From NCBI GenBank assembly GCA_963675665.1, contig OY776510.1, forward strand, positions 5,078,019 to 5,142,018: a DNA stretch of 64,000 bases, read 5' to 3'. The notes below the pieces were generated by a model. The model did no database searches. It was not told the DNA's origin and saw only the letters and a program-made list of their open reading frames with translations. Every line of letters begins with the position of its first letter. Positions within the stretch are counted from its first letter, which is position 1. The DNA is from Spirochaetia bacterium. Its GTDB lineage: Bacteria > Spirochaetota > Spirochaetia > UBA9216. The translations under genes and the position numbers were made by a program. Below, piece by piece: positions 23,397 to 53,792 of this stretch.

Positions 23397-23432
23397 TTTA
23401 TTCCCCCGTACCGACAATACCGGCAGCACGTT

Positions 23433-24851
23433 TTATTTCATCAAAAGCCTGATCATTTTAAAATGGTCTTTTATCCCCGGAGCGGATTCAACTCCGCTTG
23501 AGATATCTATCAGTTCCGGAGAAAACCCGTTTATTATATCGTAAATATTACCGGGATTTAATCCGCCGGCAAGCCAGAGCGACTGCTGTTTAGCAACCTT
23601 CCGAACCAATTCAGTTTCAATACGTTTGCCGGTACCGCCGTGAGCGTCCCGGCTGAATGCGTCAATTAATACAGCGGGACCGGGCAGACTGCCGGCTTCA
23701 TCAACTGAATCTGCATCCTTAATTCGGACGGCTTTATAGCCGGGCCATTTCAAATATTCCGACGGCAGCTCATTTCCGTGGAACTGAACTGCATCCAGAG
23801 CGCCCGACTTAAGCAGCGCGACGATCTCACCCGGCAAAAGCTCTTCCCGGTCAAGAACAACAACTCCCACCTTCAGGATATCGTAACTGCGGCAACTTTC
23901 GATAAACTCAGGCTCAACTTTTCTCGGCGATTCGGCAAGAATGAATCCTGCGACATCGCCGCCGAGACTGATTACAGCCTCAAGGTCGTCATGGTTTGTT
24001 ATACCGCATATCTTTACCAGCGGCGCCCCTGTACGGACCCGGCTGTAAAGCTTTCGCCAGAATTTGAAACGGAAATCATCAGAACTGCGTCCTGATGTAA
24101 ATGCCGCGGCAAGCTTTTCGGCAAAAGAGGCGTCCCTTACGACGGCCTCGCCGACAAGGACCGCGTTAAAACCGGAACCCTCAACAAAATCAATGTCGTA
24201 TTCGGTTTTTATACCTGATTCATAGATTATCCGGCAATCCCAGTTTATCATGGTTCTGATTTTCAGAGGCTGCAACGGCTTAATTGTAAAAGATTTGAGA
24301 TCACGGCTGTTAATTCCTACCAAATCGGGGCGGAACCCGGCCGCTTTTTTAATATCATCTGAACTGTGCAGTTCGACAACCGGCGTCATTCCCAGCTTCA
24401 GTCCGAGTTCATACATCGATCGCAGTTTTTCCGAATCAAGAAGCGACGCAATAAGAAGAAAGGCATCTGCACCGGCTTTGTAACTGATCTCGACATCTTC
24501 TTCCGAAATCAAAAAATCTTTTCGCAGAATCGCGGTCTGAGGCAAGGCGGTTTTTATTTTAATCAGATCGTCAAGCGACCCGCTGAAATAATTCTGTTCG
24601 GTTAGAACGCTGATACTTTTAATACCTGCCGAGACATAATTCCGTGCCTGGGCAACCGGATCAAGCCCCGTATTGATATTATCAACCGACGGAGAGCGTC
24701 TCTTTACCTCGCAGATAACACCGGGCTGCTGTAAAAACGGGACAAGGGGAAGTATGCGCTCTGAAGGGATCTTTATTCCCTGTGCCGCCCCTTTCTGTTT
24801 TATATCCTCAGCACGCCTGGCTGCGATCTCCGCCCTGATATCCGGTTTCAT
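23433..24851 (-). CDS. trpCF: bifunctional indole-3-glycerol-phosphate synthase / phosphoribosylanthranilate isomerase
   Basis: N-terminal IGPS half (ILRKDF...DAFLLIA) and C-terminal PRAI half (VKICGIT...VQFHGNE). Confidence 0.85.
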   Translation of the reverse strand: MKPDIRAEIAARRAEDIKQKGAAQGIKIPSERILPLVPFLQQPGVICEVKRRSPSVDNINTGLDPVAQARNYVSAGIKSISVLTEQNYFSGSLDDLIKIKTALPQTAILRKDFLISEEDVEISYKAGADAFLLIASLLDSEKLRSMYELGLKLGMTPVVELHSSDDIKKAAGFRPDLVGINSRDLKSFTIKPLQPLKIRTMINWDCRIIYESGIKTEYDIDFVEGSGFNAVLVGEAVVRDASFAEKLAAAFTSGRSSDDFRFKFWRKLYSRVRTGAPLVKICGITNHDDLEAVISLGGDVAGFILAESPRKVEPEFIESCRSYDILKVGVVVLDREELLPGEIVALLKSGALDAVQFHGNELPSEYLKWPGYKAVRIKDADSVDEAGSLPGPAVLIDAFSRDAHGGTGKRIETELVRKVAKQQSLWLAGGLNPGNIYDIINGFSPELIDISSGVESAPGIKDHFKMIRLLMK

Positions 24852-26470
24852 TTTCCTGCCTCTGCCCGTCTTCCCGGCGATTGCGATTTGCGTATAACGG
24901 CATTCAGTTTTTCCTTTACCAATCCTGAGTCCAGAGCCTGCCCGGCTATTTTGCAGCCGGCTTCAATAGTCCCGGTTTTCCCTGCTACCATGAGTGCGGC
25001 ACCGGCATTAAGAATGCATGCGGCCCTGACGGCCTCAGGACCTTTACCTTCAATCAGGCGCAGCGCGGTTGCGGCATTTTCAGCTGCATTCCCGCCGGAA
25101 AGGTCTTCGGTACTGTAACCTTCAAACCCGGCTTCAGACGGATCAAAAGTAAAGTCTGTTTCATTATCATTTTCATCAATCATGTATACACGCGCAGGAG
25201 CTGCGGGCGACAATTCATCAAGCCCGTCGTCGCTGTGAACTACCATTACCCTTTTTACCCCGGTCATTTTCGCCGCCTTTGCCATGACAGCACAAAGATC
25301 TTTTGAGTAGACCCCGATCACCTGGTACTCCGCCTCAGCAGGATTTACAAGCGGTCCCAAAAGGTTCATTATTGTTTTAACTCCGAGCTCGGCCCTTACC
25401 GGTCCCGCGTGTTTCATGGCACCGTGAAATATTGGTGCAAACATAAACGTAAACCCCTCAGCCTCAAGAAGCTGTTCCGATTCGGAAGGGGTAAGATTAT
25501 AGTTAATACCAAGTTCCGAATAAAAATCGGCGCTCCCGCTTTTCGAACTTACCGCCCTGTTGCCGTGCTTTGCAACCTTCACCCCGCAGGCGGAAGCTAT
25601 CAATGCGGCCAGCGATGATATATTGAAGGTATGCTTTCCGTCTCCGCCGGTTCCGCAGGTGTCCAGTACCGGACTGCCCGTCTTTACCTGCAGTTTTTTT
25701 CGTTTGAGAACCGAGGCGCAACCGGCTATCTCTTCGGAAGTGATTCCCTTGCAGTTAAGCGCCGTCAGTATTGCAGATATAAATACGGGGCTGAGCGCAC
25801 CTTCCGTAAGCTCATCCATAAAATCAGCAGCTTCTTCAAAACTCAACGAACCTTTTTCCTGAAGCCGTGAAAGCATTCCTTTTCTGTCCAGCGGCTCCCG
25901 CTTATAACGGATAAAATTCTTCAAAATTGTCCTGCCGGCTTCTATACAGCCGATTGATTCCGGGTGAAACTGCACTCCCTCTACAATCATTTCCTTATGA
26001 CGCAGACCCATAATCTCGCCGTCATCGCTTTCAGCCGTTATCTCAAGGCATTCGGGAAGGCTTGCACGCTCAGCCGCCAGCGAATGATATCGCGTAAACC
26101 CGGCTTCAGACGGCAGATTACGGAACAGTCCCTTTCCGTCCAGGCTGATCTTTTCCACCTTGCCGTGAACAATATTCGCAGCCTGTACTATTCTTCCGCC
26201 GAAACATTCGGCAATTGCCTGATGTCCCAGACATATCCCTAAAATCGGGACCGAACCGCTGAAAAACCTGATAACCTCTATGGAAATACCAGCCTCGGAA
26301 GGAGCTCCCGGTCCCGGTGAAATAATAATCCTCGACGGATCTGTTTTTTTCAGTTCATCAACGGTAATTTTATCATTACGGTAGACTTTTATTTCCTCAT
26401 CCGTGATGCAGGAAATCTCCTGAACTATGTTATATGTAAATGAATCATAATTATCTATAACTGCAATCAT
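24848..26470 (-). CDS. trpGD: bifunctional anthranilate synthase glutamine-amidotransferase component / anthranilate phosphoribosyltransferase
   Basis: N-terminal class-I GATase (IDNYDSFTYN, GICLGHQ) fused to a TrpD half (GTGGDGKHTFNIS, KHGNRAVSSKSGSAD). Confidence 0.85.
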   Translation of the reverse strand: MIAVIDNYDSFTYNIVQEISCITDEEIKVYRNDKITVDELKKTDPSRIIISPGPGAPSEAGISIEVIRFFSGSVPILGICLGHQAIAECFGGRIVQAANIVHGKVEKISLDGKGLFRNLPSEAGFTRYHSLAAERASLPECLEITAESDDGEIMGLRHKEMIVEGVQFHPESIGCIEAGRTILKNFIRYKREPLDRKGMLSRLQEKGSLSFEEAADFMDELTEGALSPVFISAILTALNCKGITSEEIAGCASVLKRKKLQVKTGSPVLDTCGTGGDGKHTFNISSLAALIASACGVKVAKHGNRAVSSKSGSADFYSELGINYNLTPSESEQLLEAEGFTFMFAPIFHGAMKHAGPVRAELGVKTIMNLLGPLVNPAEAEYQVIGVYSKDLCAVMAKAAKMTGVKRVMVVHSDDGLDELSPAAPARVYMIDENDNETDFTFDPSEAGFEGYSTEDLSGGNAAENAATALRLIEGKGPEAVRAACILNAGAALMVAGKTGTIEAGCKIAGQALDSGLVKEKLNAVIRKSQSPGRRAEAGK

Positions 26471-26483
26471 GTCCGCCCTCGTG

Positions 26484-27884
26484 TCAGATTTCTATTCCGG
26501 CGGCCAGCGCCGCCGCCCTGAGTTTTTCATTGGTTTCTTCAAGTTCGCGCTCAGGCGTCGAATCGTAAACAACACCGCCGCCGGCCTGCAGGTACAACCT
26601 GTCCTGCTTTTTTAACCCGCTGCGTATTGTAATGCATGTATCAAGATCTCCGGATGCATCCATATATCCTACCAGTCCGGCGTAAAATCCCCGGTTACAG
26701 TCCTCTATCTTTGATATCGTCTCGATAGCCTGGATTTTTGGCGCCCCGCTTACGGTGCCGGCCGGGAAACTTGCTCTTACCGCGTCGGTGCTGTCGCAGT
26801 CGTCACGAAGCTCGCCTTCAACCTGCGAAACAATATGCATGACCTTCGAGTATTTTTCGATCATCATGTATTCCGTCACCTTTACAGTTCCGGTTTTACA
26901 TACCCGGCCGAGATCGTTCCGGGCCAGATCAATCAGCATAAGATGTTCAGCCCGTTCTTTCGGATCTGCCAGAAGCTCCTCTGAAAGAGCAAGATCTTCA
27001 GCTTCATTTCTCCCACGTCTCCGCGTACCGGCTATGGGCCTGAGTATAACTTTTCCGTTTTTAACCTTCACCTGGACCTCAGGCGAAGCCCCGTACAGCT
27101 GGTAATTTCCAAAATCTATATAAAACAGGTATGGCGACGGATTCGCGGTACGCAGATTACGATATGCATCAAGCGCACTGATATCGGTTTTTATCTCCAG
27201 TCTTCTTGACGGCACTCCCTGCAGAAGGTTGCCTTTTATAACCTCTTCACGGATTACAGCAACATTCTTTCTGTAGGTTTCCGCAGCTTCCTCATTATTC
27301 AGCAATTGAGCAGGGGCGATCTCGGGGCGATCAGCCATGTAGTTGAAATTCAGATCAAAGATTTTTTTCTCAATTCTTGCCAGTTCGTATTCAAGATCAA
27401 TTTCATAACCCGGATAGTTGAGAACAAGAATGTATATTTCATCAGTGTAGTGATCAAAAATCAGGAACGAGTTCCCGAAAATAAACGCCGCATCCGGCAG
27501 ACCAAGCTCATCATGCCTTTCTTCAAAGACAATATCATCGCAAAAACGGGCGAATTCAAATGATAAAAAACCGAACCCTCCGGCGGGGAACGGAAAATCG
27601 TGTTCGGCATTACTGTGAAACATTGCAAAACGTTTTACAGCATCAAGAATATCGCGACCGCAATTAACAATCTTTTTTCGGCGCCCGTCTGTTGTTATCA
27701 GAAAAGACATTTCTCCGTTTTGAATAATCCGGAATGCTTCGTTAAGCAGAAGCAGCGAATACCTTTCGCGTCCCTTGCTCAGCGATGACGATTCCAGTAT
27801 TGCTGCAGCATTCAGCTTGCATGCCAGCGCAAAGGGGGTAAATTTTTCCCCGGGAATTTTTTTTACAAGATGATTTCGACTCAT
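26484..27884 (-). CDS. trpE: anthranilate synthase component I
   Basis: Chorismate-binding C-terminal domain (GAPK, LQAGGGVV). Start moved from the track's 27962 to ATG 27884 (RBS GGGGAGAA), because the promoter lies inside the longer ORF. Confidence 0.85.
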   Translation of the reverse strand: MSRNHLVKKIPGEKFTPFALACKLNAAAILESSSLSKGRERYSLLLLNEAFRIIQNGEMSFLITTDGRRKKIVNCGRDILDAVKRFAMFHSNAEHDFPFPAGGFGFLSFEFARFCDDIVFEERHDELGLPDAAFIFGNSFLIFDHYTDEIYILVLNYPGYEIDLEYELARIEKKIFDLNFNYMADRPEIAPAQLLNNEEAAETYRKNVAVIREEVIKGNLLQGVPSRRLEIKTDISALDAYRNLRTANPSPYLFYIDFGNYQLYGASPEVQVKVKNGKVILRPIAGTRRRGRNEAEDLALSEELLADPKERAEHLMLIDLARNDLGRVCKTGTVKVTEYMMIEKYSKVMHIVSQVEGELRDDCDSTDAVRASFPAGTVSGAPKIQAIETISKIEDCNRGFYAGLVGYMDASGDLDTCITIRSGLKKQDRLYLQAGGGVVYDSTPERELEETNEKLRAAALAAGIEI

Positions 27885-27895
27885 CCGATTCTCCC

Positions 27896-27913
27896 CGGAC
27901 GGCATCCCGTCCG
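27896..27913 (-). promoter_or_regulatory. 5'-UTR hairpin immediately upstream of the trpE Shine-Dalgarno
   Basis: CGGACGG-gatg-CCGTCCG followed by GGGGAGAAUCGGAUG on the transcript. Confidence 0.4.
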
Positions 27914-27922
27914 TTTCTGCAT

Positions 27923-27938
27923 ATAGTAACGTTACTAT
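27923..27938 (-). promoter_or_regulatory. perfect 16-bp palindromic operator ATAGTAACGTTACTAT overlapping the trp -10 and +1
   Basis: Its own reverse complement. Position is typical of a TrpR-like repressor site. Confidence 0.5.
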
Positions 27939-27962
27939 AAAAAGAAACGTGAAAACTGTCAA
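27934..27962 (-). promoter_or_regulatory. trp operon sigma70 promoter
   Basis: Minus strand reads TTGACA, 17 nt, TATAGT. Confidence 0.55.
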
Positions 27963-28267: not shown

Positions 28268-30841
28268 TTAAGGGGCCTCCGTATCGGCGGTTAGCGGGTA
28301 GCTTTCGCTCTGCAGGTTAATCTCCGACAGGGCCGTTTGAAAATCGGCATTGCTCTGATAGATGCTGAAATCACTCGTGGTAGAAGCACCAGTAACCGGC
28401 TCGGTCCAGACAAATTTTGCATAGCTGTTTTCCTGACTCGGATCAGGATGATCATACAGGTACAAAACCGCTGTATTTAAGTCGCCGTCGATATAGGCCA
28501 TTGAGGCGTGTCCTTCATATTCAGGAGTACTGAGGTTTGGTCGTCCCCAATGGAGTAGGGCCTGCGAGCCGTCGCTGTAAAATTCATATTCCTGGGTTCC
28601 ATAGCCGTCATCAGGAAGATACCAGGTGCCGCCAAGTTCGATCAGGCTGGAATAATCCGGATGTATTGAAAAATTATAGACGCCGGTGCTGCTGTTTATC
28701 GAGACGGTAGACGCGCCGTAATATCCGGAATAATCTCCGGACAGGGGCTGCCCGAAGGTACCCGATGTATTCACGGCGCCGTAGAGGTAGTAGCTTCCTG
28801 ACGGAACATTAGTAATCAGAAAACACATTGAGTTGCTGGTACTGCAATAGCCGCCGCCTGTTGCGACCTGGCCGTTGCCTCCGTCCTGATCAGTATCCAG
28901 GGCCGCCCAGTATGCAGCACCGCTCCAGTCAACACCTTCTGGCAGCGACATGGTCCCCCTGACAATATAACCGCTGGAGTTCTTCTCTCCACTCAGGACG
29001 AATGTTTCATCAATCGAGGAATCCGAGCCGTAGTCATAAGTCCCCAACCCTTCAACCGTTCCGTCTGAATCAACAACCCCGCAAATATCCGCCGTCACTA
29101 CCTGCGGAGCAGTAAAATCATGATTAAGAGAAAAGTCTCCGGTAGAGGAGTTTAATGTACCGGTTGCAGTGTATTCTCCTGTAACAGTAAGAAAGGTCAC
29201 TGTTGCGGTACTGCCGTTTACTTCCAGGGTCCATACTCCGGCATTTGAGTCTTCCGGATTGCCTGTGGTGGATGACAATATCTCAGTACTCCCCCCGTAA
29301 AGGCCGTTGTAATCAAGCGAAGCAACAACTTCAACCGTTCTTGTTACCCAAACCGCGCTGTTTCCGTCGGTATCGGTTTCCGAATACGTAAATACATATG
29401 TGTCAGGCGTATCAATGTCGAATTCATCATCATCTGAAGCCGTGATTGTATAGTCGTCATTTATTCCCCAGTCACGGACGGTTGCCTCCGGATCGGTGAA
29501 ATCTCCGCCGACCTCCACGCTCATTGAAGCATCGCCGTTCAGATAAATGACGGGGGGCACAAGATCAGCCGAAATATAGGCAGTTGCAGTACGCTCATCA
29601 GCCGCGGCGGTACGGGCGGCATTAACTGTAAAATAACCTGCAGTCCAGCTCTGCTCAAAAACCCCGTCGACGGGCTCAGTCCATTCAACTTTGAAGTACT
29701 CTTCACCGCTCAGAGCTATCCCGTAATTGGCATCATTGTCATATTCAACCATTGTTCCGCTGTCTACTGTAGAACCGGAATTGGTAACCACTGAATATGA
29801 ATCATCACCCGGATTTGACTGGTAAAGATAACCGGTGCTGTTATCCCAGAAATAATATGCTTCTGGAATTTCAATCGGGGGCGGATCAATTACCGTTACC
29901 GTTCTTGTTATCGACTCGGCCGCATTCCCGTCCAGATCAGTTGCGTTATAAGTCAGCGTATAATCGTCAGGCGTTGAAGTATCAACTTCATCTTCACTGT
30001 AAACCGTCCAGGTCCCGTCGACATTATCCGTGGCTGTTGCGCCCGGGTCGGTAAAGTCGCTTCCGTATGACACCGTCATCGGATCATCGCCGAGCAGGCT
30101 TAAAACCGGGGCCACGGCATCGGCTGCAGCGCGTCTTTCAACATCAATTGTGTATGTTTTTAAAGTTTCGCCGTCTTCCGCAGTTACTTTCACTGAAACA
30201 ATATTGCTGCCGGTTACAAGCGCTACCGGACCTGATTCTGCGCCTGAAACAGCAGCAGCGCCGTTTACAGTCATTGAAGCCGCCGAATCGCTGAGCACAG
30301 CTGTTACGGTTATTGATTCCGTATCATCCGGAACGCTTGATTCGTACGAGATAACCGATGAGGCAAATTGAGGATCAAGATAGCCGACGCTTAATTCAAG
30401 AGCGGTTAAATCCGCATTATCCGAATATACCGGTTCCGGTCTTGTTATTTTCAATGTATACGAAACAGCATCGCCATCATCCGGAGTGACAACAACCGCA
30501 ACTGTTGTTGTTCCGTAGGATAAATCAATGCTAATACTGCTGCCGCTTGTCAGCGCCTGCCCGCCTACCGAAAGGCTTGCTCCGCTTAATTCGGCCGCGA
30601 GTTCGATGAAAATGGAAGAAAGGGCTGAATTCACGGTTACTTCAACAGTCGCGGTTTCGGCTGAAAACGAGACCTGTTTCACATAGGGTTCTCCGCCGGC
30701 ATTTCCGCTTAAAGAAAGCGATACGGAGACTGATCCCGCAACCGGAGGGAGCGTTTCAGGACAGCCTGAAAAGAACATAACACTCATCGTAACCATCAAT
30801 AATAGAACAATGTACTTGATTGACTTTCTTATTCCAAACAT
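28268..30841 (-). CDS. surface lipoprotein with cadherin-like beta-sandwich and two DUF5011/Ig-like repeats
   Basis: Lipobox FFSGC after the signal peptide. Cadherin-like block (ADLTALELSVGYLDPQFASSVISY...ITVTAV). Two repeats of the form LxGDxxMxVxxGxxFTDPxATxxD...DTYxxTYxxTDxxGN...TRTVxVx. Confidence 0.6.
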   Translation of the reverse strand: MFGIRKSIKYIVLLLMVTMSVMFFSGCPETLPPVAGSVSVSLSLSGNAGGEPYVKQVSFSAETATVEVTVNSALSSIFIELAAELSGASLSVGGQALTSGSSISIDLSYGTTTVAVVVTPDDGDAVSYTLKITRPEPVYSDNADLTALELSVGYLDPQFASSVISYESSVPDDTESITVTAVLSDSAASMTVNGAAAVSGAESGPVALVTGSNIVSVKVTAEDGETLKTYTIDVERRAAADAVAPVLSLLGDDPMTVSYGSDFTDPGATATDNVDGTWTVYSEDEVDTSTPDDYTLTYNATDLDGNAAESITRTVTVIDPPPIEIPEAYYFWDNSTGYLYQSNPGDDSYSVVTNSGSTVDSGTMVEYDNDANYGIALSGEEYFKVEWTEPVDGVFEQSWTAGYFTVNAARTAAADERTATAYISADLVPPVIYLNGDASMSVEVGGDFTDPEATVRDWGINDDYTITASDDDEFDIDTPDTYVFTYSETDTDGNSAVWVTRTVEVVASLDYNGLYGGSTEILSSTTGNPEDSNAGVWTLEVNGSTATVTFLTVTGEYTATGTLNSSTGDFSLNHDFTAPQVVTADICGVVDSDGTVEGLGTYDYGSDSSIDETFVLSGEKNSSGYIVRGTMSLPEGVDWSGAAYWAALDTDQDGGNGQVATGGGYCSTSNSMCFLITNVPSGSYYLYGAVNTSGTFGQPLSGDYSGYYGASTVSINSSTGVYNFSIHPDYSSLIELGGTWYLPDDGYGTQEYEFYSDGSQALLHWGRPNLSTPEYEGHASMAYIDGDLNTAVLYLYDHPDPSQENSYAKFVWTEPVTGASTTSDFSIYQSNADFQTALSEINLQSESYPLTADTEAP

Positions 30842-30941: not shown

Positions 30942-31886
30942 TCATGAACGGTAGCGAACATCGTCAAACAGCCGGAGCCGCCATCCGCGCGTCTTTATAT
31001 CTCTGGGGTTTTCGGAAACAGGCACAATTGTGCCAATCTGGATCAGTTCAAGATACTTTTTTATATCATTTACCCGGTTTTTATAGTTGCGGTAATTAGC
31101 GCATGAGGTAGCCTTCCAGTTCCCGGCAGTACACTCCCTGCAGTGCGGATCTTCCGTCCCGTCCGCTTTCAGCCGGCTGAAAAGCTCACTGCAGTTCTGA
31201 GAATTGTTTTCCGCTGAAAGAAACGCATGTATAAAATCACATTCCTGGGGACTGAGCATTGACGATATGTTCCTGTCGTCGAAATAAAGACTGTCGTCGA
31301 AATAAAGACTGTCGCCTGAATAGTGAAGCCTGTGGTTGGCCCTCTCCCAGAGGTTCGCTGCCGCAAAAATCATAAGCAGACCGATTACCCCGTTGACCAG
31401 GTTATAGGCTGTAGACTCAATCCACCGGGGCTCGGCTCTTGTTACTATCGCATACGACATCATCATAAGCCAGGAAACCCACAGGATAACTATTACAATT
31501 GTGCCGATAGTAAGAGTCCTGTATACCGGAGTTCTTTTTTTAACCAGCCTGAGAGAATCTATTTTTATAATTAAGAGAATGTAATAAAGCAATACTGCCT
31601 GTGTTCCATATGTATGAAAATCACGATGGTATAATCTTCCTCCTGCACTTGCTGTTATTATAAGTACTGCAAGACTGAAAAAGAACACGGGAATGAAGAC
31701 TCTTGCTTTTTTAAAACGTGAAGTAAAAAAAGGAAGAAAAAAAGCAGCAATTGCCGATATCAGCATGTAGAGGAATTCCGGAACACCCGCGGCAGCAACA
31801 CTTATAGTGCCTGACGGATTTAAAAACACCATGAGTTCAATCACAATCCATGCCACTGCCGAGATAATCGGTACAGAAATCGCCAT
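30942..31886 (-). CDS. hypothetical membrane protein with cytoplasmic Cys-rich (zinc-ribbon-like) C-terminal tail
   Basis: About 6 N-terminal TM helices. PHCRECTAGNWKATSC cluster. Contains an in-frame 18-bp tandem duplication. Confidence 0.5.
   Translation of the reverse strand: MAISVPIISAVAWIVIELMVFLNPSGTISVAAAGVPEFLYMLISAIAAFFLPFFTSRFKKARVFIPVFFFSLAVLIITASAGGRLYHRDFHTYGTQAVLLYYILLIIKIDSLRLVKKRTPVYRTLTIGTIVIVILWVSWLMMMSYAIVTRAEPRWIESTAYNLVNGVIGLLMIFAAANLWERANHRLHYSGDSLYFDDSLYFDDRNISSMLSPQECDFIHAFLSAENNSQNCSELFSRLKADGTEDPHCRECTAGNWKATSCANYRNYKNRVNDIKKYLELIQIGTIVPVSENPRDIKTRGWRLRLFDDVRYRS
31275..31310 (-). repeat. perfect 18-bp tandem duplication (2 copies) inside the coding sequence
   Basis: GTCGTCGAAATAAAGACT x2 (plus strand) encodes the duplicated peptide DSLYFD-DSLYFD. 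Confidence 0.8.
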
Positions 31887-31989
31887 ATTGTTCTACATAA
31901 TAAGGCATAATCCGGAACATGACCAATATTTTTTTGATTCCGATTTATTAATCATCCGTAAGAATGTAGAATATACAAAAGGAGAAGCT

Positions 31990-32862
31990 ATGCAGGAATT
32001 GTCAGCCGAGACGCTAAACGAAGTAATTGCAGATCAGAAAAACGAACTTGACGCATCAATAATTTACGGCAAGATCGCGAAAAAAATGAAAGATGATAAC
32101 AACCGGAAAATTCTTTCAAAAATTGCCGAGGATGAAAAAAAGCATTACCTGATTCTAAAAAACTATTCGGGAAGAGATGTTAAGCCGCGCCGCTTCAAAA
32201 TACTGATGTTCCTGTTCTTCGCAAGGGTGTTCGGTATAACATTCGCATTCAAACTTCTTGAAAACGCCGAAGGAGAGGCCCATACCGGCTACCGGAAAAT
32301 TTCATCGGCACTCCCTGAACTGAAAAAAATTATTGATGATGAGGAACGGCATGAGCGGGAACTTATCGATATGCTTAATGAAAAAAAACTCGATTACATA
32401 GGCTCAATTGTCCTGGGCCTAAACGACGCGCTTGTCGAATTGACCGGAGCGCTTGCGGGGTACACCTTTGCCATTCAGGACAGCAGAAACATTGCATTGC
32501 TGGGTCTTATCACAGGGATATCAGCTTCTCTTTCAATGGGAGCAAGCGAATATCTGTCCAAAAAACAGGAAAAAGAAGACAAGGCGTTCAGTTCAAGCCT
32601 GTATACCGGCATAGCATACATTATAACTGTTATGCTCCTGGTTCTCCCGTTTCTGCTGTTGTCGAATCCCTTTATAAACCTCGGAATAACAGTCGGAATA
32701 GCTGTCCTGATCATCTTCTTCTTCAATTACTACATTTCGGTTGCAAAAGACCTTTCATTCAGACACAGATTCCTGGAGATGGCCGCAATCAGCGTGGGTG
32801 TTGCAATTATCTCATTCCTTATAGGATGGGCCGTAAGAACGTTTTTGGGATTTGAGCTTTAG
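31990..32862 (+). CDS. MbfA-like membrane-bound ferritin: N-terminal ferritin-like (erythrin) domain fused to a VIT1/CCC1 iron/manganese transporter domain
   Basis: The N-terminal half has ExxH-type diiron ligand pairs (EDEKKHY, DDEERHERE). The C-terminal half has VIT1 GLNDALVELTGALAG and 3-4 TM helices. Start set at ATG 31990 after AAAGGAGAAG. Confidence 0.7.
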   Translation: MQELSAETLNEVIADQKNELDASIIYGKIAKKMKDDNNRKILSKIAEDEKKHYLILKNYSGRDVKPRRFKILMFLFFARVFGITFAFKLLENAEGEAHTGYRKISSALPELKKIIDDEERHERELIDMLNEKKLDYIGSIVLGLNDALVELTGALAGYTFAIQDSRNIALLGLITGISASLSMGASEYLSKKQEKEDKAFSSSLYTGIAYIITVMLLVLPFLLLSNPFINLGITVGIAVLIIFFFNYYISVAKDLSFRHRFLEMAAISVGVAIISFLIGWAVRTFLGFEL

Positions 32863-32964: not shown

Positions 32965-34467
32965 TTAAATTGAAGTTTCTTCTTTATTCTTTCTTTTTTC
33001 CCTGTACATTTCAAAATCTGCGGTCTGTATCATCTTCTCAATATCTTTATCAGCGCTGCAGGATACACAGAACCCTGCCGACAGACTGAGGTTGTGAGTG
33101 GTTTTAATATTAATTTTTGCAATATTCTCCCGGAGTCGTTTTACCAGTTTTGCTGCAAGTTCATGTTCGCATTCAGTTATCAGAACAACAAACTCATCGC
33201 CGCCTATCCGAAAAATGTAGTCGGTTTCCCTGAAAGTATTTTTCAGAGTCTCTGCAGCCTGCTGTATGAGCACATCACCTTCAGCATGGCCCAGGGTATC
33301 ATTCACAGTCTTCAACCCGTCGATATCTACAGAAAAAACGCCGCCCGGACGAAAATCCGTTTCACCCATGATAATCTTGTTAAAATATGCCCTGTTATAA
33401 ACACCGGTAAGCGCGTCATGATAACTGGTATATTCATATTGATTTCTGGAAATAACCAATTCTTCATAACGCTGAGCATTTGAAATAGCCAGCGATGCAA
33501 TTTTTATGATTGAATTAAAAAGATCAGTGTATTTATCAACATGTTTCGGGAAAAGAAAATCTCCAACCTCAATAATTCCGAATTTCTCGTCTCCGGATTT
33601 GAGCAATGCATAAAAGGTTTTATTTTCAGAGTCCATTATATACACTTGCTCTTCTTTAAATTCCAGAGTTTTTATTTTCCGGGGCGCATCAGCCCAATCT
33701 TCGCTGTAATTCCAGAAACAGCTTTTTGAGGCACCGAAGAGGATCGTCCAGATATGATCAAGCATTGATATAACATCCCGTTTGTATTCAGCGCCGGCTA
33801 TTCTGGACATGATATGCAAAACAGCTGAGTTTCTTGCATTCATATCCATCAACGCACGCATGTCATCCTGCTTTTCAGTCTTCAGATTTCGGACCCTCCA
33901 ATCGGTGACAATGCTTTTAAGAAGTGTTCTTATCGGCTCAAGACTAACCGGAATTGATCTGACCGGAAGGTCCAGATAAGCCGAAAGAGCTTTCAGCTTC
34001 TTGTCGGCCTCATCATAGATCCCGGTGTCGAGAAAAACAATTTTACTGCAGCAGCTTTTGTAAAATTCCCGGGCTGTCCCGATAGTAAATCCCTGCCTCT
34101 TTATATGTTCTTCCCAGTTGACAAGCCAGCCTGTTGTTACGACATAATATCCTTCCGCGGAAAAAAAACGGGCAAACTGGTCGCTGATCATGTGGGAATA
34201 GCAAAAAGCCGATTCGTAAACCGATAAAAACTTTTTATCATACTCATCTTTTCTGGGGGCCCTGCAGAGGTGACTGCATACAAGTACGGCAGCTTCATCG
34301 GGATTCGGTTTTTCCGCAATGCCGTTCTGAGAATTAAAAACAGGAATACCGCCGTCGCAAAAACTGTGAAAAGGAACAATATCCAGGTTTTCAGGCCCCT
34401 CATTTTCTACGAGATACCGGAATTCGGGGAGATAGTTCTCACATACATATACTGATAATCGGTTCAT
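32965..34467 (-). CDS. diguanylate cyclase (GGDEF) with N-terminal Cys-rich DUF1638-like domain
   Basis: C-terminal intact GGDEF (RIGGDEFVVL). The N-terminal 200 aa share conserved blocks with the N-terminus of the 949-aa protein at 47942-50791: a Cys early in the first strand, a VLVCSHLC / IVIGYGLCGRG block, TTGW / TEGW, and VFLDTG / VYIDTG. Confidence 0.8.
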   Translation of the reverse strand: MNRLSVYVCENYLPEFRYLVENEGPENLDIVPFHSFCDGGIPVFNSQNGIAEKPNPDEAAVLVCSHLCRAPRKDEYDKKFLSVYESAFCYSHMISDQFARFFSAEGYYVVTTGWLVNWEEHIKRQGFTIGTAREFYKSCCSKIVFLDTGIYDEADKKLKALSAYLDLPVRSIPVSLEPIRTLLKSIVTDWRVRNLKTEKQDDMRALMDMNARNSAVLHIMSRIAGAEYKRDVISMLDHIWTILFGASKSCFWNYSEDWADAPRKIKTLEFKEEQVYIMDSENKTFYALLKSGDEKFGIIEVGDFLFPKHVDKYTDLFNSIIKIASLAISNAQRYEELVISRNQYEYTSYHDALTGVYNRAYFNKIIMGETDFRPGGVFSVDIDGLKTVNDTLGHAEGDVLIQQAAETLKNTFRETDYIFRIGGDEFVVLITECEHELAAKLVKRLRENIAKINIKTTHNLSLSAGFCVSCSADKDIEKMIQTADFEMYREKRKNKEETSI

Positions 34468-35507
34468 TTCCTTTTTCCGTAGCCACCAGGCGGGTAGCGT
34501 CCGTATTCCTCTGCAGCCATGGATACAGCAAGAAGAGTTTTTTCCGGTACCTGCAAAGGTATTTCTCCATGAGAGTCCGACAGGATGAAACCGCCTCCCG
34601 GAGCTGCAGTTTTAACCAAAGCCCTGACTTTTTCAACGGCTGTTTCTTTATCCCATTCAGCCATTTCTATTCCGTTTAGGTTTCCCAATAACGTTATTCT
34701 TCCGGTCGAGACGTCTTTTATATGCTTCAACTCTTCGCCTGTCCCTATCCCGACAATCGGGCTGCCGAGGTTAATTATATCTTCCATTACCTGCAAAACC
34801 CTTCCGGAAGCAAGATGCACAGCAACCGGACCTTCTATTCCGGTAATTGTCCGACTGTCTACAGGGTAACCTGCAGACAGATACAATGACCTGTCGATCA
34901 TATCCGGAGACATCAGCGGATTAAAATAGCCGATGGCTGTTGCACCTGCCTTGAATTGTGCATTTGCGTAATTTATACAAAACTGTCGGTTAACCTGCAT
35001 CAAACGGTCAAACCTCGGCCTGTCAAAATATAATAGTTTCAGATATTTCTCAAATCCCATCTGCATTACGGGCAAAGAAAAAGGAGACATTACAATTCCG
35101 ATAACAGGCACTTTTCCGTTTGAATGAATCGCAAGTTCTCTGGTTACCTCAAGCACCTGTCTGAGGACAGGTACATCATCGATATCAGGTACTTCCATTG
35201 AATCAATATCGCTGCTTTTCCCGATGATACCTTCTCCGGCATTCGGAGGGGTTTCCGGTTGAAAGAGTACTTCTCCGCCCCACGCCTGTACTTCAACAGC
35301 AGCATAATGAAATGTATAATAACAGTCGGTCTGATACTTTTTCTGCATATGAATCTGTGTTTTAATAACATTTTCAGCCACTGAAAAGTAATTTTTAACC
35401 GAACAGCCCATTTCCTTGGCACCGTAGTGTGAAAACAGGAAGAAGACTGGTACTCTGTCGGGCTCCTTGTGGCCAAGCGTTTTCAGAACCCTTTCCATCG
35501 ACGTCAT
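34464..35507 (-). CDS. uroporphyrinogen-decarboxylase-family methyltransferase (MtaA/CmuA-like methylcorrinoid methyltransferase)
   Basis: N-terminal KEPDRVPVF block and an overall URO-D (TIM barrel) family length of about 345 aa. Overlaps the upstream corrinoid-protein gene by a few nt. Confidence 0.7.
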   Translation of the reverse strand: MTSMERVLKTLGHKEPDRVPVFFLFSHYGAKEMGCSVKNYFSVAENVIKTQIHMQKKYQTDCYYTFHYAAVEVQAWGGEVLFQPETPPNAGEGIIGKSSDIDSMEVPDIDDVPVLRQVLEVTRELAIHSNGKVPVIGIVMSPFSLPVMQMGFEKYLKLLYFDRPRFDRLMQVNRQFCINYANAQFKAGATAIGYFNPLMSPDMIDRSLYLSAGYPVDSRTITGIEGPVAVHLASGRVLQVMEDIINLGSPIVGIGTGEELKHIKDVSTGRITLLGNLNGIEMAEWDKETAVEKVRALVKTAAPGGGFILSDSHGEIPLQVPEKTLLAVSMAAEEYGRYPPGGYGKRK

Positions 35508-35511
35508 ATCA

Positions 35512-36165
35512 CTATTCACAGCCGCCCCTCCATGAATCCAGGTTTCCTGATAAATTCTCCAGAATCCCGAATATTTCTCCGGCATTCCCGGCACCCCGGC
35601 AGGCGCCTACTTTCTTATACAGATTCCGATCAAGCCGGAACGGCGCTCCGCCGACGACAATCGGTACTTCAGGACATTCCCGGGACATCCGGGAGGACAA
35701 CTCCTGTACAGCCAGGGCAGAAGGAAACATAAGCACTGATACAAGAAGAATCTGTATCTTGTACTCACGGATTTTAGAAATGATCTTTTCCGCATCAACT
35801 CCTGTACCAAGATCAAAAACAGGATACCTGTAATTTCTTACCAGGCTGGAGACAATCTTCATTCCAAGGCTGTGATGATCAAGATAGACTGCAGCCCCGA
35901 TAACGGGAAGAGACTCATCAGTCCTGTCTGATTCAGATAAAAGCGTCTTCAAAATCTCCTCACATATAACACCGCTCATATACACCTGAGCAAGAGATAC
36001 TTCACCGGATTCCCAGTTTGCCCCGACCTTTTCAAGCGCATACATCAGAGTCTCTCCCATACCGGTAATACCCTTCTCTTCTACCGCCTCTCTTAAAATT
36101 TTATCTACGCCGGTTCGGTCAACCGAAACAAGCCCTTCATATAAAGCCTGAACTGAATTATCCAA
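35512..36165 (-). CDS. corrinoid (cobalamin-binding) protein, MtaC/MtbC-like
   Basis: DxHxxG B12-binding motif (YLDHHSLGMKIV) in a Rossmann-like C-terminal half with an N-terminal helical cap. TTG start 9 nt after AAAGGAG. Confidence 0.75.
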   Translation of the reverse strand: MDNSVQALYEGLVSVDRTGVDKILREAVEEKGITGMGETLMYALEKVGANWESGEVSLAQVYMSGVICEEILKTLLSESDRTDESLPVIGAAVYLDHHSLGMKIVSSLVRNYRYPVFDLGTGVDAEKIISKIREYKIQILLVSVLMFPSALAVQELSSRMSRECPEVPIVVGGAPFRLDRNLYKKVGACRGAGNAGEIFGILENLSGNLDSWRGGCE

Positions 36166-36378
36166 ATCCGATACTCCTTTGCCAGTTATTTAAAGAAAAG
36201 ATCATCAGAGATCATTTAATGATAATTCATTCAGAATTGTAATGCAAGAAAGATCATAAACCGTTATGAACAGAGAAAAATCATCCGTAAGAATGCAGAG
36301 TACGGGCACCTCTGATAACCCTCGGAATAACGGCCGTCGGCCCTTCACAGAATCTTCATGCTCGGATAAAATACTGCG

Positions 36379-39186: not shown

Positions 39187-39939
39187 TTATACCGGAACAA
39201 CAAAGGGAAAACCACCGGCGTCCAGAACCATGACATCCAGACCATAAACCTCTTTCATGTTTTCAGGTGTTATAATGCTTCTGTCTCCCGCGGCATATAT
39301 CAGACCGTCTTTCAGAAGAACAAATTTGTCTGAATACCTTAAAGCCAGATTGATGTCGTGCATGGTCATTACCGCGGCCCTGAAGCCGGCATGAATAAGA
39401 TCCCGGATCTTTACCATAAGGCGATGCTGGTTACTTATATCAAGGCTGCTGGTTGGTTCGTCAAAAAGGATTACACGGGGGTCCTGAGCCAAAGTGCGGA
39501 CTATCTGTACCAGCTGAAACTCTCCGCCGCTTATTTCATCCGCATACCGAAGAGAGAGGTCTTCAATACCCAGAAGCTTTATTGCTTCTTCTATCTTGTC
39601 ATAGTCTTCCCTGGCCGGCTCCCACCTGAAATAGGGTTTCCGGCCAAGAAGGATAAGGTCGTATACTTTCATCCTGGAAATCTCACCCTGTTGAGGTACC
39701 CAGCCTATCTTTCGTGCAACTTCCAATGATCGCATATCCTCAACATCTGTACCGTCAATCCGTACAGAACCTCTCAGGGGAGAAAGGACCCGGTTCAGGC
39801 ATTTAAGAAGGGTTGTTTTGCCGCTGCCGTTAGGCCCCAGAATGGACAGGATCTCTCCCGCCGCCACTCCGAAGGATACATCCCTGATTACGGGCACGCT
39901 GTTATACCGGAATTTAAGGCCGTGAACATTGAGGATCAT
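39187..39939 (-). CDS. ABC transporter ATP-binding protein (FecE/BtuD-like)
   Basis: GPNGSGKTT, LSGGEFQL, ILFDEPTSSLD. Confidence 0.85.
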   Translation of the reverse strand: MILNVHGLKFRYNSVPVIRDVSFGVAAGEILSILGPNGSGKTTLLKCLNRVLSPLRGSVRIDGTDVEDMRSLEVARKIGWVPQQGEISRMKVYDLILLGRKPYFRWEPAREDYDKIEEAIKLLGIEDLSLRYADEISGGEFQLVQIVRTLAQDPRVILFDEPTSSLDISNQHRLMVKIRDLIHAGFRAAVMTMHDINLALRYSDKFVLLKDGLIYAAGDRSIITPENMKEVYGLDVMVLDAGGFPFVVPV

Positions 39940-40994
39940 CTTTTTCGTCCTGCTATAAGCAGATAAATAAACAGAGGCCCGCCCGACAGGGATGTCAAGA
40001 TTCCTACAGGAAGAACCATAGGAGAAAGAACTGTTCTTGCCGCTGTATCCGCCGCTAAAAGGATTATTGCTCCGACCAGCGGAGAAGCAACCAGTAAAAA
40101 GCGGTGGTCTCCGCCAAGGATTTTCCTGGCGATATGCGGCCCCAGAAGGCCTACAAATGCTATTGTTCCAAAAAAGGACACTATTATTGCCGAAAGAATG
40201 GAGGCTGACAACATCCCGATTATTCTGACGACCCCGGTTTTTACACCGAGTCCCCTGGCCGTATCTTCTCCCGTATCCAAGGCATTAAAATTCCATCGAA
40301 AGTAAAAGAACAAAATATATACGGGAACCAGCACCAGAGCAATAATCAACAGAAAGTGCCGGTTTGCCCGGCCGAGATCTCCAAAGGTCCAGGATATTAT
40401 GCCGGCCAGCTGAATACTGTCGGCAAGATACTGCATGAGGGTAAGACCGGCCGAGAAAATTGAGCCGATCGCAATGCCCGCCAGCACCATACTTTCAGCC
40501 GAGATTTTGGTTAAAACGGTAAGCAGGAGAATCGCTGCTGTTGACAGGGAAGAGAAAACAAAAGCTGAAAAAGCGACTGTAAAGGAATCGCTTATAATAA
40601 TAGTTGATGTAGTGCCGGTTCCTGCTCCAAAAAAAACGATGGCAAACGACGCTCCAAAAGCTGCAGCGCTGGAAAGGCCCAGCGTATATGGAGATGCCAG
40701 CGGATTTCGAAGCACCGACTGCATGACCGTCCCGGAAAGGGCCAACCCTGCCCCTACAAGAAGTGCGGCAATTATCCTGGGCATCCGGACATCCCGGATA
40801 ATCCTTCCGGCACCGGTCATATCGAACCCGAAGATACCTGAAACCACCTCTTTCAGAGGTATTCTGATAGTCCCCGTCGAGACGGATATAATTACAAGCA
40901 AAGCAAGGAGCAGTCCTGTAACGATAAGAAAAACAATCTTTCTTCTTATATATCCCCTGTAATGGTAATATATCGAAGAGCCGTTATGAAGCAT
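39936..40994 (-). CDS. FecCD-family ABC permease (iron-chelate/cobalamin type)
   Basis: 352 aa, 9-10 TM, FecCD-like Gly-rich helices. Confidence 0.85.
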   Translation of the reverse strand: MLHNGSSIYYHYRGYIRRKIVFLIVTGLLLALLVIISVSTGTIRIPLKEVVSGIFGFDMTGAGRIIRDVRMPRIIAALLVGAGLALSGTVMQSVLRNPLASPYTLGLSSAAAFGASFAIVFFGAGTGTTSTIIISDSFTVAFSAFVFSSLSTAAILLLTVLTKISAESMVLAGIAIGSIFSAGLTLMQYLADSIQLAGIISWTFGDLGRANRHFLLIIALVLVPVYILFFYFRWNFNALDTGEDTARGLGVKTGVVRIIGMLSASILSAIIVSFFGTIAFVGLLGPHIARKILGGDHRFLLVASPLVGAIILLAADTAARTVLSPMVLPVGILTSLSGGPLFIYLLIAGRKR

Positions 40995-40996
40995 AT

Positions 40997-42145
40997 TTAA
41001 TTAAACCAGTCCACTCTTTCAGGGCCGGCTTTCTGCCGGGCAACAACAGTATCGTAATCCAGCGGCACTCCGAAGAAAAGGTTCCAAATCTCCTCAGCCT
41101 TATCTTTTATTGATACATCACCGTACAGCTCCGGATAACATACCTTACCGGTATAATAGACATTAATAAGCTGATTTTCCCAGTTGGTTCCGTAATATTT
41201 ATATACAAAGGTTGTATGAACTTCACGGTTTATAAATGCCGGAACCTGCTCTTCAAGGACCGTCCGGTTTGTCATAAACCCGGCTTTTGAAAGATTTACA
41301 TTTGCCGCGTCGATAAATATATAATCCGGGGAAGCCGCTATCAAATCTTCAAGCGACGTCATATATGGTTGAAGGTTTCCCGCGGGATTTGTGGGCATTA
41401 CATTTTCCGTACCCGTCAGTTCAAACGGAAGGTAGTCTCCTGTTGTACGGAGCAGATCGGCAGGCCCGTAGTACATCATACCGCCGGCATAAGCCTTTTG
41501 GGGAGCCTGTGATTTCACAGCCCGGGCTTCAAGATCCTTTATAACAGCATCAATACCCGCTACCAGCTCTTCAGCTCTTTCTTCCCTGTCCAGCACCAGG
41601 CCCAATGTTTTAAGTTGATTATAAAACAGTTCCAGGTCAAAAAACTCCACATCAATATTGACGCCGAATACAGGTATTCCCAAAACCTCCTGAAGATGAT
41701 CCAGCTGGCCGGTATCTACGGCAGAGGATATAATGACATCCGGAGCCGCCGCAATTATTCCTTCATGGTTTTCCCCGCTTCCTATGCCCGGCAACTGCCG
41801 AAGTTCCGGAAAAGCCAAACGGTAAGTTGCCAGATAAAAAAAGTCATGAACTGTTTTTTCCCTGCCGTGTCCCGAATCTTCAACAGCAATCACCTTGTCC
41901 GCAGCATTCAGATAACTTACAAGTCTTAAAGAGCCGGCATCAAGAGCAATAATGCTGTTGACTTCTCCCGGTACCGGGACATCACGACCCCTCATATCGG
42001 TAACAGTAAAAGTGTTACCGGGTTCTGATATTTCCTGCTGCGGCATGGCAAAAAGACCCGAAAATATGCAGAAGACGAAAAGACCGATAAACAAAACCTT
42101 TATAATCGACTGTCGATATACCCTGTAATTGCGAGCGTTCAACAT
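40997..42145 (-). CDS. ABC periplasmic binding protein (class III; BtuF/FhuD-like)
   Basis: 382 aa with a signal/anchor. Two-lobe PBP pattern for chelated metals/corrinoids. Confidence 0.7.
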   Translation of the reverse strand: MLNARNYRVYRQSIIKVLFIGLFVFCIFSGLFAMPQQEISEPGNTFTVTDMRGRDVPVPGEVNSIIALDAGSLRLVSYLNAADKVIAVEDSGHGREKTVHDFFYLATYRLAFPELRQLPGIGSGENHEGIIAAAPDVIISSAVDTGQLDHLQEVLGIPVFGVNIDVEFFDLELFYNQLKTLGLVLDREERAEELVAGIDAVIKDLEARAVKSQAPQKAYAGGMMYYGPADLLRTTGDYLPFELTGTENVMPTNPAGNLQPYMTSLEDLIAASPDYIFIDAANVNLSKAGFMTNRTVLEEQVPAFINREVHTTFVYKYYGTNWENQLINVYYTGKVCYPELYGDVSIKDKAEEIWNLFFGVPLDYDTVVARQKAGPERVDWFN

Positions 42146-42320
42146 AAAAACCTCCGGTGTTTAATCATCATTGCCCTTTAGATGTGTTTTGATTAAAGCA
42201 ACAAGTGAATTTAACAGTGTTACGTTATTTTATTTTCGTGTTACTGGTATAGAAAATACTATTTTTTTGTTTTCAGGTCAATAGCCGTAAACAGTTCAAA
42301 AGGCTTTAAAGGTGCGAAAT

Positions 42321-42743
42321 TTATTTTTTTATCAATTCTCTGTATAATTCATCCGTAGCAGAAATAGTAAGTTGGCCGATCAGATTTTTATTTGATAAAA
42401 GTTTTCGGGCCCAGGCATGGACCTCTTTACCCTTGCCCTTGATAACCATAACCTTTACACAGATTTCCTTTTCCGCATGAAGCTGTAAATTGGCTGTGAT
42501 TCGCACCGATGGAAAAGAACTTACCGATACGCGGGGAAGACGGGTTTCGTAATTATACAACAGGGTTACGGTTCCGATAACTTCCCGATCAGCATCATGG
42601 GAACCGACTTCGATCAGCTCCTGCCTGACCAGTTCCCGTATTGTTTCGGACCTGCTCTCATGTCCTCCCTGAGAGGTCAGCCTGTCCAAAAGCTCGACGA
42701 GCTCACTGTCCATAGATACACCGAAGCGTATTGTATCACCCAT
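42321..42743 (-). CDS. NikR-family (ribbon-helix-helix + ACT-like) nickel-responsive regulator
   Basis: N-terminal RFGVSMDSELVELLD...RSETIRELVR RHH. C-terminal HAEKEICVKV...H block resembles the NikR metal-binding domain. Confidence 0.6.
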   Translation of the reverse strand: MGDTIRFGVSMDSELVELLDRLTSQGGHESRSETIRELVRQELIEVGSHDADREVIGTVTLLYNYETRLPRVSVSSFPSVRITANLQLHAEKEICVKVMVIKGKGKEVHAWARKLLSNKNLIGQLTISATDELYRELIKK

Positions 42744-53725: not shown

Positions 53726-53792
53726 CTCAAAGAATAACATAGGCTTGAACATTTGTCTTGGACAGGATAAAAAAACGTTATATAGTGTAAAT

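Follow-up and report, generated by a model that had tools for sequence, protein, structure and literature searches.

Corrinoid-protein and URO-D-superfamily genes recurrently linked to DUF1638-like signalling proteins: a candidate cobalamin-based sensory input in anaerobic bacteria and archaea

Why should a small corrinoid protein and an enzyme of a methyltransferase superfamily be encoded together with a diguanylate cyclase? The question is raised by a locus in the genome of a Spirochaetia bacterium (GenBank assembly GCA_963675665.1), which was analysed within a 64,000-nucleotide stretch of contig OY776510.1 (positions 5,078,019 to 5,142,018 of the forward strand). This stretch is referred to as the window, and coordinates are positions in it unless another locus is named. 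Three consecutive minus-strand genes in the window encode, in order of transcription, a corrinoid (cobalamin-binding) protein, an enzyme of the uroporphyrinogen decarboxylase (URO-D)/MtaA superfamily, and a protein, here called the sensor, in which a DUF1638-like and a GAF-like domain precede a GGDEF diguanylate cyclase domain. The original prediction for this locus was that the DUF1638-like domain may link the methylation or redox state of the corrinoid to the synthesis of cyclic di-GMP (c-di-GMP) or, alternatively, may be the missing substrate-activating component. The former claim is supported in part, by strong comparative evidence, i.e. the conservation of the triad and the variety of its outputs.

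The triad is one instance of a large unnamed family that is built from known parts. The corrinoid/URO-D pair is probably a functional part of the sensor. A bolder reading, to which a probability of roughly 40% is given, is drawn from genome comparison: the cobalt or methylation state of the dedicated corrinoid protein, written by the methyltransferase-like enzyme and relayed by a DUF1638-Cys4 reader domain, would serve as the signalling intermediate for two-component, c-di-GMP and partner-switching outputs, which would represent a hitherto unrecognised input principle in anaerobic bacteria and archaea. No description of the triad, i.e. of DUF1638 and corrinoid proteins with a cyclase or kinase, was found in the searchable full-text literature, subscription-only titles lying outside its reach.

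Conservation of the triad and variety of outputs

The co-occurrence of the three genes extends from this genome to several bacterial phyla and to archaea, which decisively counters one refuting case named in the original prediction, namely that they are never found together in related genomes. An intact URO-D gene lies directly upstream of the sensor gene at 28 of the 29 informative sensor-anchored loci, the window counted, and the 29th carries a URO-D remnant. The corrinoid gene precedes the URO-D gene wherever the contig extends that far, and the DUF1638-type sensor is found two genes downstream of the corrinoid gene at every locus with sufficient contig. When URO-D genes were taken as the anchor, the triad was present in all three contexts sampled (Psychrilyobacter, a Bacteroidetes metagenome-assembled genome and Riflebacteria). 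The order corrinoid gene, URO-D gene, sensor gene was found in Desulfogranum marinum DSM 2058, in Desulfobacterium, and in genomes or metagenome-assembled genomes of Clostridia, Eubacteriales and Spirochaetales, as well as on a partial Sediminispirochaeta contig and at one more GGDEF-type metagenome locus. Two archaeal contigs, on which genes for archaeal RNA polymerase, L7Ae and aEF lie nearby, carry the triad with kinase outputs, and triads with a 1138-aa PAS kinase and with a 921-aa hybrid kinase were also found. Taken together, the carriers belong to Spirochaetota, Desulfobacterota, Clostridia, Fusobacteriota, Bacteroidota, Riflebacteria and archaea, and they include cultured strains, e.g. 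D. marinum DSM 2058 and Psychrilyobacter. The named carriers and sources all point to anoxic habitats. Genes flanking the triads are unrelated from locus to locus.

A metagenome scan seeded by a distant, kinase-rich clade of the sensor gave 19 loci, of which 17 were informative; the remaining two were a locus at a contig end (L019) and a locus with a stand-alone DUF1638-like open reading frame (ORF) that is not a sensor (L032). The URO-D gene lies directly upstream of the sensor gene at 16 of the 17, and a remnant of it is present at the 17th. This last locus (L029) was considered as a true exception and rejected, as the C-terminal remnant of a URO-D protein is fused upstream of the sensor. 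The remnant (ISDNHGEIPWQ) stands in frame upstream of a kinase-type DUF1638 sensor at positions 2111-3736 of L029, and no corrinoid gene was found within 2.2 kb upstream; either the triad has decayed or been rearranged here, or the locus was misassembled. The stand-alone ORF of L032 (positions 1842-2525 of that locus; 227 aa) has a PGWLKHWQ motif and a part of the Cys pattern described below. The neighbouring gene encodes an MFS-like membrane protein, and neither a corrinoid nor a URO-D gene is present beside this ORF on the 2.8-kb contig.

The size of the sensor family was estimated with a profile of sensor residues 1-340, relatives being counted as 50%-identity representatives. An exhaustive profile search for this N-terminal module of ~340 aa retrieved 1486 representatives, 774 of them at E<=1e-30. 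Of the 150 relatives listed, most match the profile over almost its whole length; the shortest, which are fragments, have about 200 aa and the longest has 1462 aa. When the N-terminal 340 aa were used in a word-based search, no more than 18 relatives were retrieved, two of which are histidine kinases on archaeal contigs. PF07796, the Pfam family of DUF1638, was detected in 54 of 65 sampled relatives with a best E value of 3e-16. The output and other domains of the same 65 proteins were HATPase_c (33), HisKA (30), GGDEF (22), REC (12), HD_5/HD-GYP (2) and SpoIIE (1); many also have PAS or GAF domains, and some members of the family are devoid of any output domain. One input module combined with varied outputs is as would be expected of a sensor domain that is fed by the corrinoid pair.

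The triad of Riflebacteria (L036 and L037; 1663-7279) includes a DUF1638 protein of 413 aa in which no output domain was recognised. Just upstream, two SpoIIE phosphatase genes flank the gene for a second, 364-aa B12-binding protein, and this arrangement may be a partner-switching version of the system.

The proteins encoded by the triad

An ORF map confirmed the three minus-strand genes and their coordinates, and a Pfam scan of their products matched all of the families that had been proposed (B12-binding_2/B12-binding, URO-D, and DUF1638 with GGDEF). The first gene (35512..36165, minus strand) starts with TTG, is preceded by an AAAGGAG ribosome-binding site and encodes 217 aa. Its product is the expected B12-binding corrinoid protein, consisting of a B12-binding_2 cap (PF02607, 1.5e-08) and a B12-binding Rossmann domain (PF02310, 8.6e-18). 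The DxHxxG motif is present as DHHSLG (residues 96-101, bases 35863-35880) together with SxL and GGAPF motifs; DxHxxG and GGAPF are kept in 9 orthologues, and SxL is conserved in orthologues as well. The protein scores 68.4 bits with TIGR02370 (MtaC/MttC type), under the cut-off of 215.3, and 32.2 with the CarH family NF052513, far under the cut-off of 400. No DNA-binding domain was found on it in the Pfam scan.

The longest ORF for the second gene reaches position 35594, and GTG 35519 is its start in the public gene call. Because the orthologues all begin with MTSMERV, translation is likely to start at ATG 35507, located 4 nt past the TAG of the corrinoid gene. From this start the gene (34464..35507, minus strand) encodes 347 aa. 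An 83-nt overlap with the corrinoid gene is thus an artefact of the choice of the longest ORF, and of the tightly packed, overlapping arrangement in the original prediction the three genes and their coordinates stand and this overlap does not. The stop codon of the URO-D gene and the start codon of the sensor gene share an ATGA. The spacing of the three genes suggests translational coupling.

The product of the second gene matches PF01208 over its full length (7e-50, with the longest ORF, 34464-35594), and its initial assignment as an MtaA-type methylcorrinoid methyltransferase is correct at the level of the superfamily. It does not hold at the level of the family, where the scores are far under the curated MtaA/CmuA cut-offs (73.5 vs 235.4 for TIGR01463, 74.7 vs 400 for NF040654 and 94.9 vs 244 for NF004889) and the Cys zinc ligands are gone. 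The closest solved relative is MtaA (PDB 4AY7). In the alignment with 4AY7 the zinc-binding His is retained, and the two Cys ligands are replaced by the Ser and His that lie in the signature motifs HLASG (34803-34817) and SDSHGEIP (34557-34580). Across 127 clade members, residues H235, S238, D315 and H317 (numbered as in the 351-aa protein of the public gene call) show a conservation of at least 97%. Judged by these scores and residues, the enzyme is not an MtaA equivalog, and a His/His/carboxylate metal site is possible. Some O-demethylase MT-I enzymes, i.e. substrate:corrinoid methyltransferases, use zinc ligands other than Cys. Bacteria, which make up most of the triad carriers, are not expected to make coenzyme M.

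The clade to which this enzyme belongs comprises 3604 clusters at E<=1e-20, the best 120 of which all share >51% identity with the query, and archaeal and bacterial members are 50-60% identical. This unusual conservation argues for one common substrate or partner. In the databases, proteins of the clade are named solely 'uroporphyrinogen decarboxylase family protein' or 'MtbA'.

The third gene (32965..34467, minus strand) encodes the 500-aa sensor, for which domains were delimited using Pfam and an AlphaFold (AF2) model. AlphaFold models of the full-length protein and of residues 1-200 are confident (pLDDT 92.7 and 92.5, respectively). A doubly wound alpha/beta domain, which is the divergent DUF1638-like domain with a GWLxxW motif (aa 1-195; 33883..34467), is followed by the second input domain (aa 197-306; 33550..33879), made up of a long helix and a GAF/PHY-like alpha/beta domain at residues 229-306. 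No Pfam match was obtained for the aa 197-306 stretch; the GAF-like domain accompanies the DUF1638-like domain throughout the sensor family. A 43-residue signalling helix (aa 307-349; 33421..33549), presumably forming a dimeric coiled coil, then joins the input module to the GGDEF output (aa 350-500 and the stop codon; 32965..33420). This architecture resembles those of 5LLW and PleD. The top Foldseek matches of the full-length model were phytochrome-regulated diguanylate cyclases (5LLW) with ~370 columns aligned, the matches being dominated by the GGDEF domain. A search of the Protein Data Bank sequences with the N-terminal profile gave chance matches only (E about 0.9).

Assignment of the output as a diguanylate cyclase is borne out at the sequence level by matches to PF00990 (1.9e-33, residues 349-496) and TIGR00254 (120 bits vs a cut-off of 37.4). 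The GGDEF motif (residues 422-426, bases 33190-33204) is intact, as is an RxxD I-site (RETD, residues 413-416) located 5 residues upstream of it, and both are invariant across 15 orthologues.

The N-terminal domain, proposed to belong to DUF1638, passes the Pfam gathering threshold for PF07796 (32.6 vs 27 bits, E 8.8e-08), the match covering residues 89-183 and profile positions 60-161 alone. The description of this region as Cys-rich also proved to be apt, and the Cys pattern is conserved in relatives. Among 150 diverse relatives, C9 (34441-34443), C37 (34357-34359), C68 (34264-34266) and C89 (34201-34203) reach a conservation of at least 90%, and the GWLxxW motif is conserved too; in the model, the four Cys residues come directly after strands 1-4 of a flavodoxin-like fold, one after each strand. 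Two archaeal kinase-type sensors (P0017 and P0018) have no Cys at the positions aligned to C9, C37 and C89.

A canonical, full-length DUF1638 domain (PF07796, 1.1e-39, 136 bits, residues 33-225) is encoded 11.8 kb from the triad in a 949-aa protein (47942-50791, minus strand), the gene for which is the only other corrinoid-linked gene found in the window. The domain is fused to Hydant_A_N and Hydantoinase_A domains (an ASKHA ATPase) and then to about 330 unassigned C-terminal residues, and among the NCBIfam models the protein faintly matches that of GlmL, an accessory protein of glutamate mutase. It may be a cobalamin-enzyme (re)activase. No homologues of the fusion were found beside other triads. 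A weak hhalign alignment of the sensor domain with this canonical copy places C68, C89, GW and DTG in register; C9 is aligned to a Cys in a separate hidden Markov model match with weak statistics, and C37 appears opposite a His of the canonical copy (GLH) by manual alignment only.

DUF1638 had been described in the original prediction as a family with no function assigned. However, genetic data tie it to B12 reactivation with a RamA-like protein (PMC5764234; PMC12478193). The stand-alone DUF1638 protein of Phaeobacter inhibens (PGA1_c13340) is cofit with a split B12-dependent methionine synthase and co-distributed with a RamA-like activase, and no specific function for it was offered by the authors (PMC5764234). 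Its homologue in Ruegeria pomeroyi, SPO2162, is induced together with MtgC and RamA (PMC12478193).

The lack of an MT-I or RACE/RamA gene near the triad, noted at the outset for a few kb on either side, was found to extend across the window. Essentially every ORF with a length of 120 aa or more in the 64 kb was scanned with Pfam, except those of TrpE and TrpG-D (24848-27962), and no MttB, MtaB, MtgB, pterin-binding or RamA/DUF4445 gene was found; nor was any pterin-type methyltransferase, MttB/MtaB-type or RamA gene present in the scanned or annotated neighbourhoods of other triads. To call the pair an orphan for want of an MT-I was an overstatement, because the URO-D superfamily itself includes substrate:corrinoid methyltransferases such as OdmB and VdmB (PMC10418091), and a separate MT-I is therefore not strictly needed. 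An Rfam scan of the whole window gave zero matches, i.e. no cobalamin or c-di-GMP riboswitch.

Proposed mechanism and alternative explanations

The constant accessory genes, the interchangeable outputs, the near-obligatory adjacency, the coupling-like spacing and the absence of other methyl-transfer components together fit a dedicated sensory module better than a catabolic pathway. A three-step proposal (recognise, write, transmit) can be made on the basis of the triad pattern and the independent genetics that connect DUF1638 with corrinoids. Within it, we infer that DUF1638 contacts the corrinoid protein and that the URO-D enzyme transfers methyl groups, as well as the direction of information and the identity of the signal. 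The small corrinoid protein would carry cobalamin in the base-off/His-on mode. The URO-D enzyme would dock on it and set the state of the cobalt, methyl on or off, its methyl donor or acceptor being probably a universal small molecule. The N-terminal module of the sensor, comprising the DUF1638-like Cys4 and GAF-like domains, would bind the corrinoid protein and tell apart the methyl-Co(III), Co(II)/Co(I) and apo forms. A conformational change would then pass through the GAF-like domain, reach the GGDEF dimer along the long helix and switch c-di-GMP synthesis; in other carriers, the output switched by this input module would be an HD-GYP phosphodiesterase, a SpoIIE phosphatase or a histidine kinase. 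That the URO-D enzyme writes and the sensor reads in this way is given an even chance, as far as can be judged from sequences.

Several observations weigh against this proposal. Methylation of a corrinoid needs Co(I), yet the triad is without a recognisable ATP-dependent activase. The URO-D enzyme is without the zinc-thiolate ligands of MtaA and its chemistry is not readable from that enzyme. The match of the sensor to PF07796 is weak (32.6 bits), and the hhalign comparison of the sensor domain with the canonical DUF1638 of the window is statistically poor (E 0.027, low probability). The GAF-like domain could be the true ligand site. No natural fusion of a corrinoid or URO-D protein to the sensor was found among 269 retrieved proteins of the sensor family, and genomic linkage cannot yield the direction of information flow.

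The alternative that fares best, though we consider it unlikely, is a redox or oxygen sensor in which the signal is the oxidation state of the cobalt, as a measure of reducing power or of exposure to oxidants. Either the very low-potential Co(I)/Co(II) couple or the loss of methyl-Co(III) on oxidation would provide this measure. The Cys4 site would be an Fe-S or metal centre and would sense the corrinoid or exchange electrons with it, and the URO-D enzyme would merely re-methylate. Canonical DUF1638 is tied genetically to reductive B12 reactivation (PMC5764234) and is fused in the window to an ASKHA ATPase. The anoxic habitats of the named carriers and sources, and the four Cys residues conserved at 90% or more after successive strands of a flavodoxin-like fold, would suit such a sensor as well. 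However, the spacing of these residues (9, 37, 68, 89) fits no classical Fe-S motif, and a cluster or metal at this site is putative. Moreover, pure redox sensing has no obvious need for a strictly conserved methyltransferase-like enzyme.

The same enzyme would be superfluous for sensing B12 availability. Nevertheless, B12-binding domains are established light and B12 sensors (CarH, AerR), and the triad might report holo versus apo corrinoid protein or form a methylcobalamin photoreceptor that is re-methylated by the URO-D enzyme after photolysis. This has a small chance of being correct. The corrinoid protein has a weak CarH-family match (32 bits), and a FecCD/BtuC-type importer with a NikR-like regulator is encoded 3 kb off in the window, but the CarH score is far under the cut-off of 400, the importer is not conserved beside other triads, no cobalamin riboswitch was found in the window by Rfam, and the sources are mostly dark and anoxic.

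A slightly smaller chance still is given to a methyl relay, in which the URO-D enzyme would move a methyl group from the methyl-corrinoid to a Cys of a (Zn-)Cys4 site and S-methylation would switch the output, as in Ada. In its favour, all URO-D members examined have Ser and His at the positions of the Cys ligands of MtaA, the product of the neighbouring gene has a conserved Cys4 set, and the spacing between the genes for enzyme and sensor suggests translational coupling. The relay is purely speculative, and none is known for the methionine synthase-type systems with which canonical DUF1638 works (PMC5764234). A sensor would be poorly served by S-methylation of Cys, an essentially irreversible change, and P0017 and P0018 have no Cys at the C9, C37 and C89 positions.

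Least probable of all is a methyltransferase pair of ordinary metabolism that merely happens to lie in one operon with a regulator, feeds enzymes encoded elsewhere and is regulated or activated by the DUF1638 protein: URO-D enzymes and corrinoid proteins are classical methyl-transfer catalysts, some of which work without a separate MT-I (MtsA/MtsB), and partners such as RamA could sit outside the 64-kb window, but the pair is tied to the sensor in 28/29 sensor-anchored and 3/3 URO-D-anchored loci, pterin-type, MttB/MtaB-type and RamA genes are absent from the scanned or annotated neighbourhoods, the outputs vary while the pair is constant, and the archaeal and bacterial enzymes share >50% identity.

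If signalling through the state of a dedicated corrinoid protein is correct, cobalamin chemistry would be the common, unexplored input of thousands of sensor kinases and c-di-GMP enzymes of anaerobes that are now labelled merely 'diguanylate cyclase', 'ATP-binding protein' or 'DUF1638 domain-containing'. DUF1638, linked to B12 reactivation since 2018 without a mechanism, would obtain its first molecular role, the recognition of a corrinoid protein, and within the URO-D superfamily a new clade would be defined, highly conserved and with an active site unlike that of MtaA. Corrinoid proteins would gain a signalling role beyond catalysis and light sensing, and a methyl-group, redox or B12 cue behind biofilm and motility decisions in sediments, digesters and guts could be revealed. 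The triad is directly testable because it is small (three genes) and carried by cultured strains.

Genomic surroundings and comparison with known systems

The triad is flanked by a divergent ApbE gene on one side and by a convergent rubrerythrin-VIT1 gene on the other. The intergenic region shared with the ApbE gene (36166..36378) is, by its position, presumed to include the promoter of the operon; a promoter and terminator scan of the three-gene operon gave results no better than shuffled sequence. The rubrerythrin-VIT1 fusion (31807-32862, plus strand), located immediately downstream of the operon, is of a type involved in iron or manganese handling. Beside it lies a gene for a 314-aa multi-pass membrane protein (30942-31886, minus strand) that has no family match and includes a tandem SLYFDD duplication. 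On the other side, an ATPase, a permease and a periplasmic binding protein of a FecCD/BtuC-type ATP-binding cassette importer are encoded downstream of a NikR-like ribbon-helix-helix regulator (39187-42743, minus strand), and the importer could import a corrinoid or a metal.

Further from the triad, a complete trp operon with fused genes (21424-27962, minus strand) was identified, TrpC-F, TrpB and TrpA by Pfam and TrpE and TrpG-D by reading of the translations. The operon and the adjacent gene for an 857-aa surface protein with cadherin-like and Ig-like domains (28268-30841, minus strand) both look ordinary. A 932-aa ORF (54891-57689, plus strand) with no Pfam match at E<=0.01 adjoins a gene for a DUF2207-like membrane protein, and genes for an OmpR-type two-component pair (51646-53845) lie near it.

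Like MtaA/MtaC, MtbA/MtbC and MtsA/MtsB, the triad combines a URO-D-fold enzyme with an adjoining small corrinoid protein that has a cap and a DxHxxG motif. Unlike the MtaA-type pairs of methanogens, it has no MT-I or RamA partner that could be found, Ser and His in place of the Cys ligands and scores below the family cut-offs; its pair is followed by a signalling protein, and it occurs mostly in non-methanogenic bacteria. The sensor shares its Pfam family with PGA1_c13340 and SPO2162, and like them is encoded near a B12-binding protein gene. No signalling output has been reported for those proteins, whereas the DUF1638-like domain is here the N-terminus of a signalling protein and is followed by a GAF-like domain. 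It also belongs to a divergent branch, with 32.6 bits vs 136 bits for the canonical copy in the window.

Type 1 mlp clusters are widespread in anaerobes and encode MtaA-like UroD proteins and a corrinoid protein without a tetrahydrofolate methyltransferase, and their physiological substrates have not been identified (PMC10418091). The triad resembles them in all three of the former respects. However, mlp clusters include 2-3 Mlp paralogues and a Ram/RACE activase, and a sensor is not mentioned for them (PMC10418091), whereas the triad has one enzyme, no activase and a near-obligatory DUF1638 sensor. The mlp clusters and the mec cassette, the kinase of which has a PocR input, were rejected as the same system.

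The proposed use of a cobalamin-binding domain for signalling rather than catalysis is shared with CarH/LitR and AerR/PpaA. In those proteins light acts via the upper ligand of the cobalt, and the partner that is bound directly is DNA or an antirepressor. Unlike the triad, they are without a methyltransferase partner or a DUF1638 reader. The predicted succession of a GAF/PHY-like domain, a long helix and a GGDEF domain is also that of IsPadC (PDB 5LLW). However, in place of the bilin-binding photosensory core of IsPadC, the input of the triad would be formed by a DUF1638-like Cys4 domain together with two accessory proteins.

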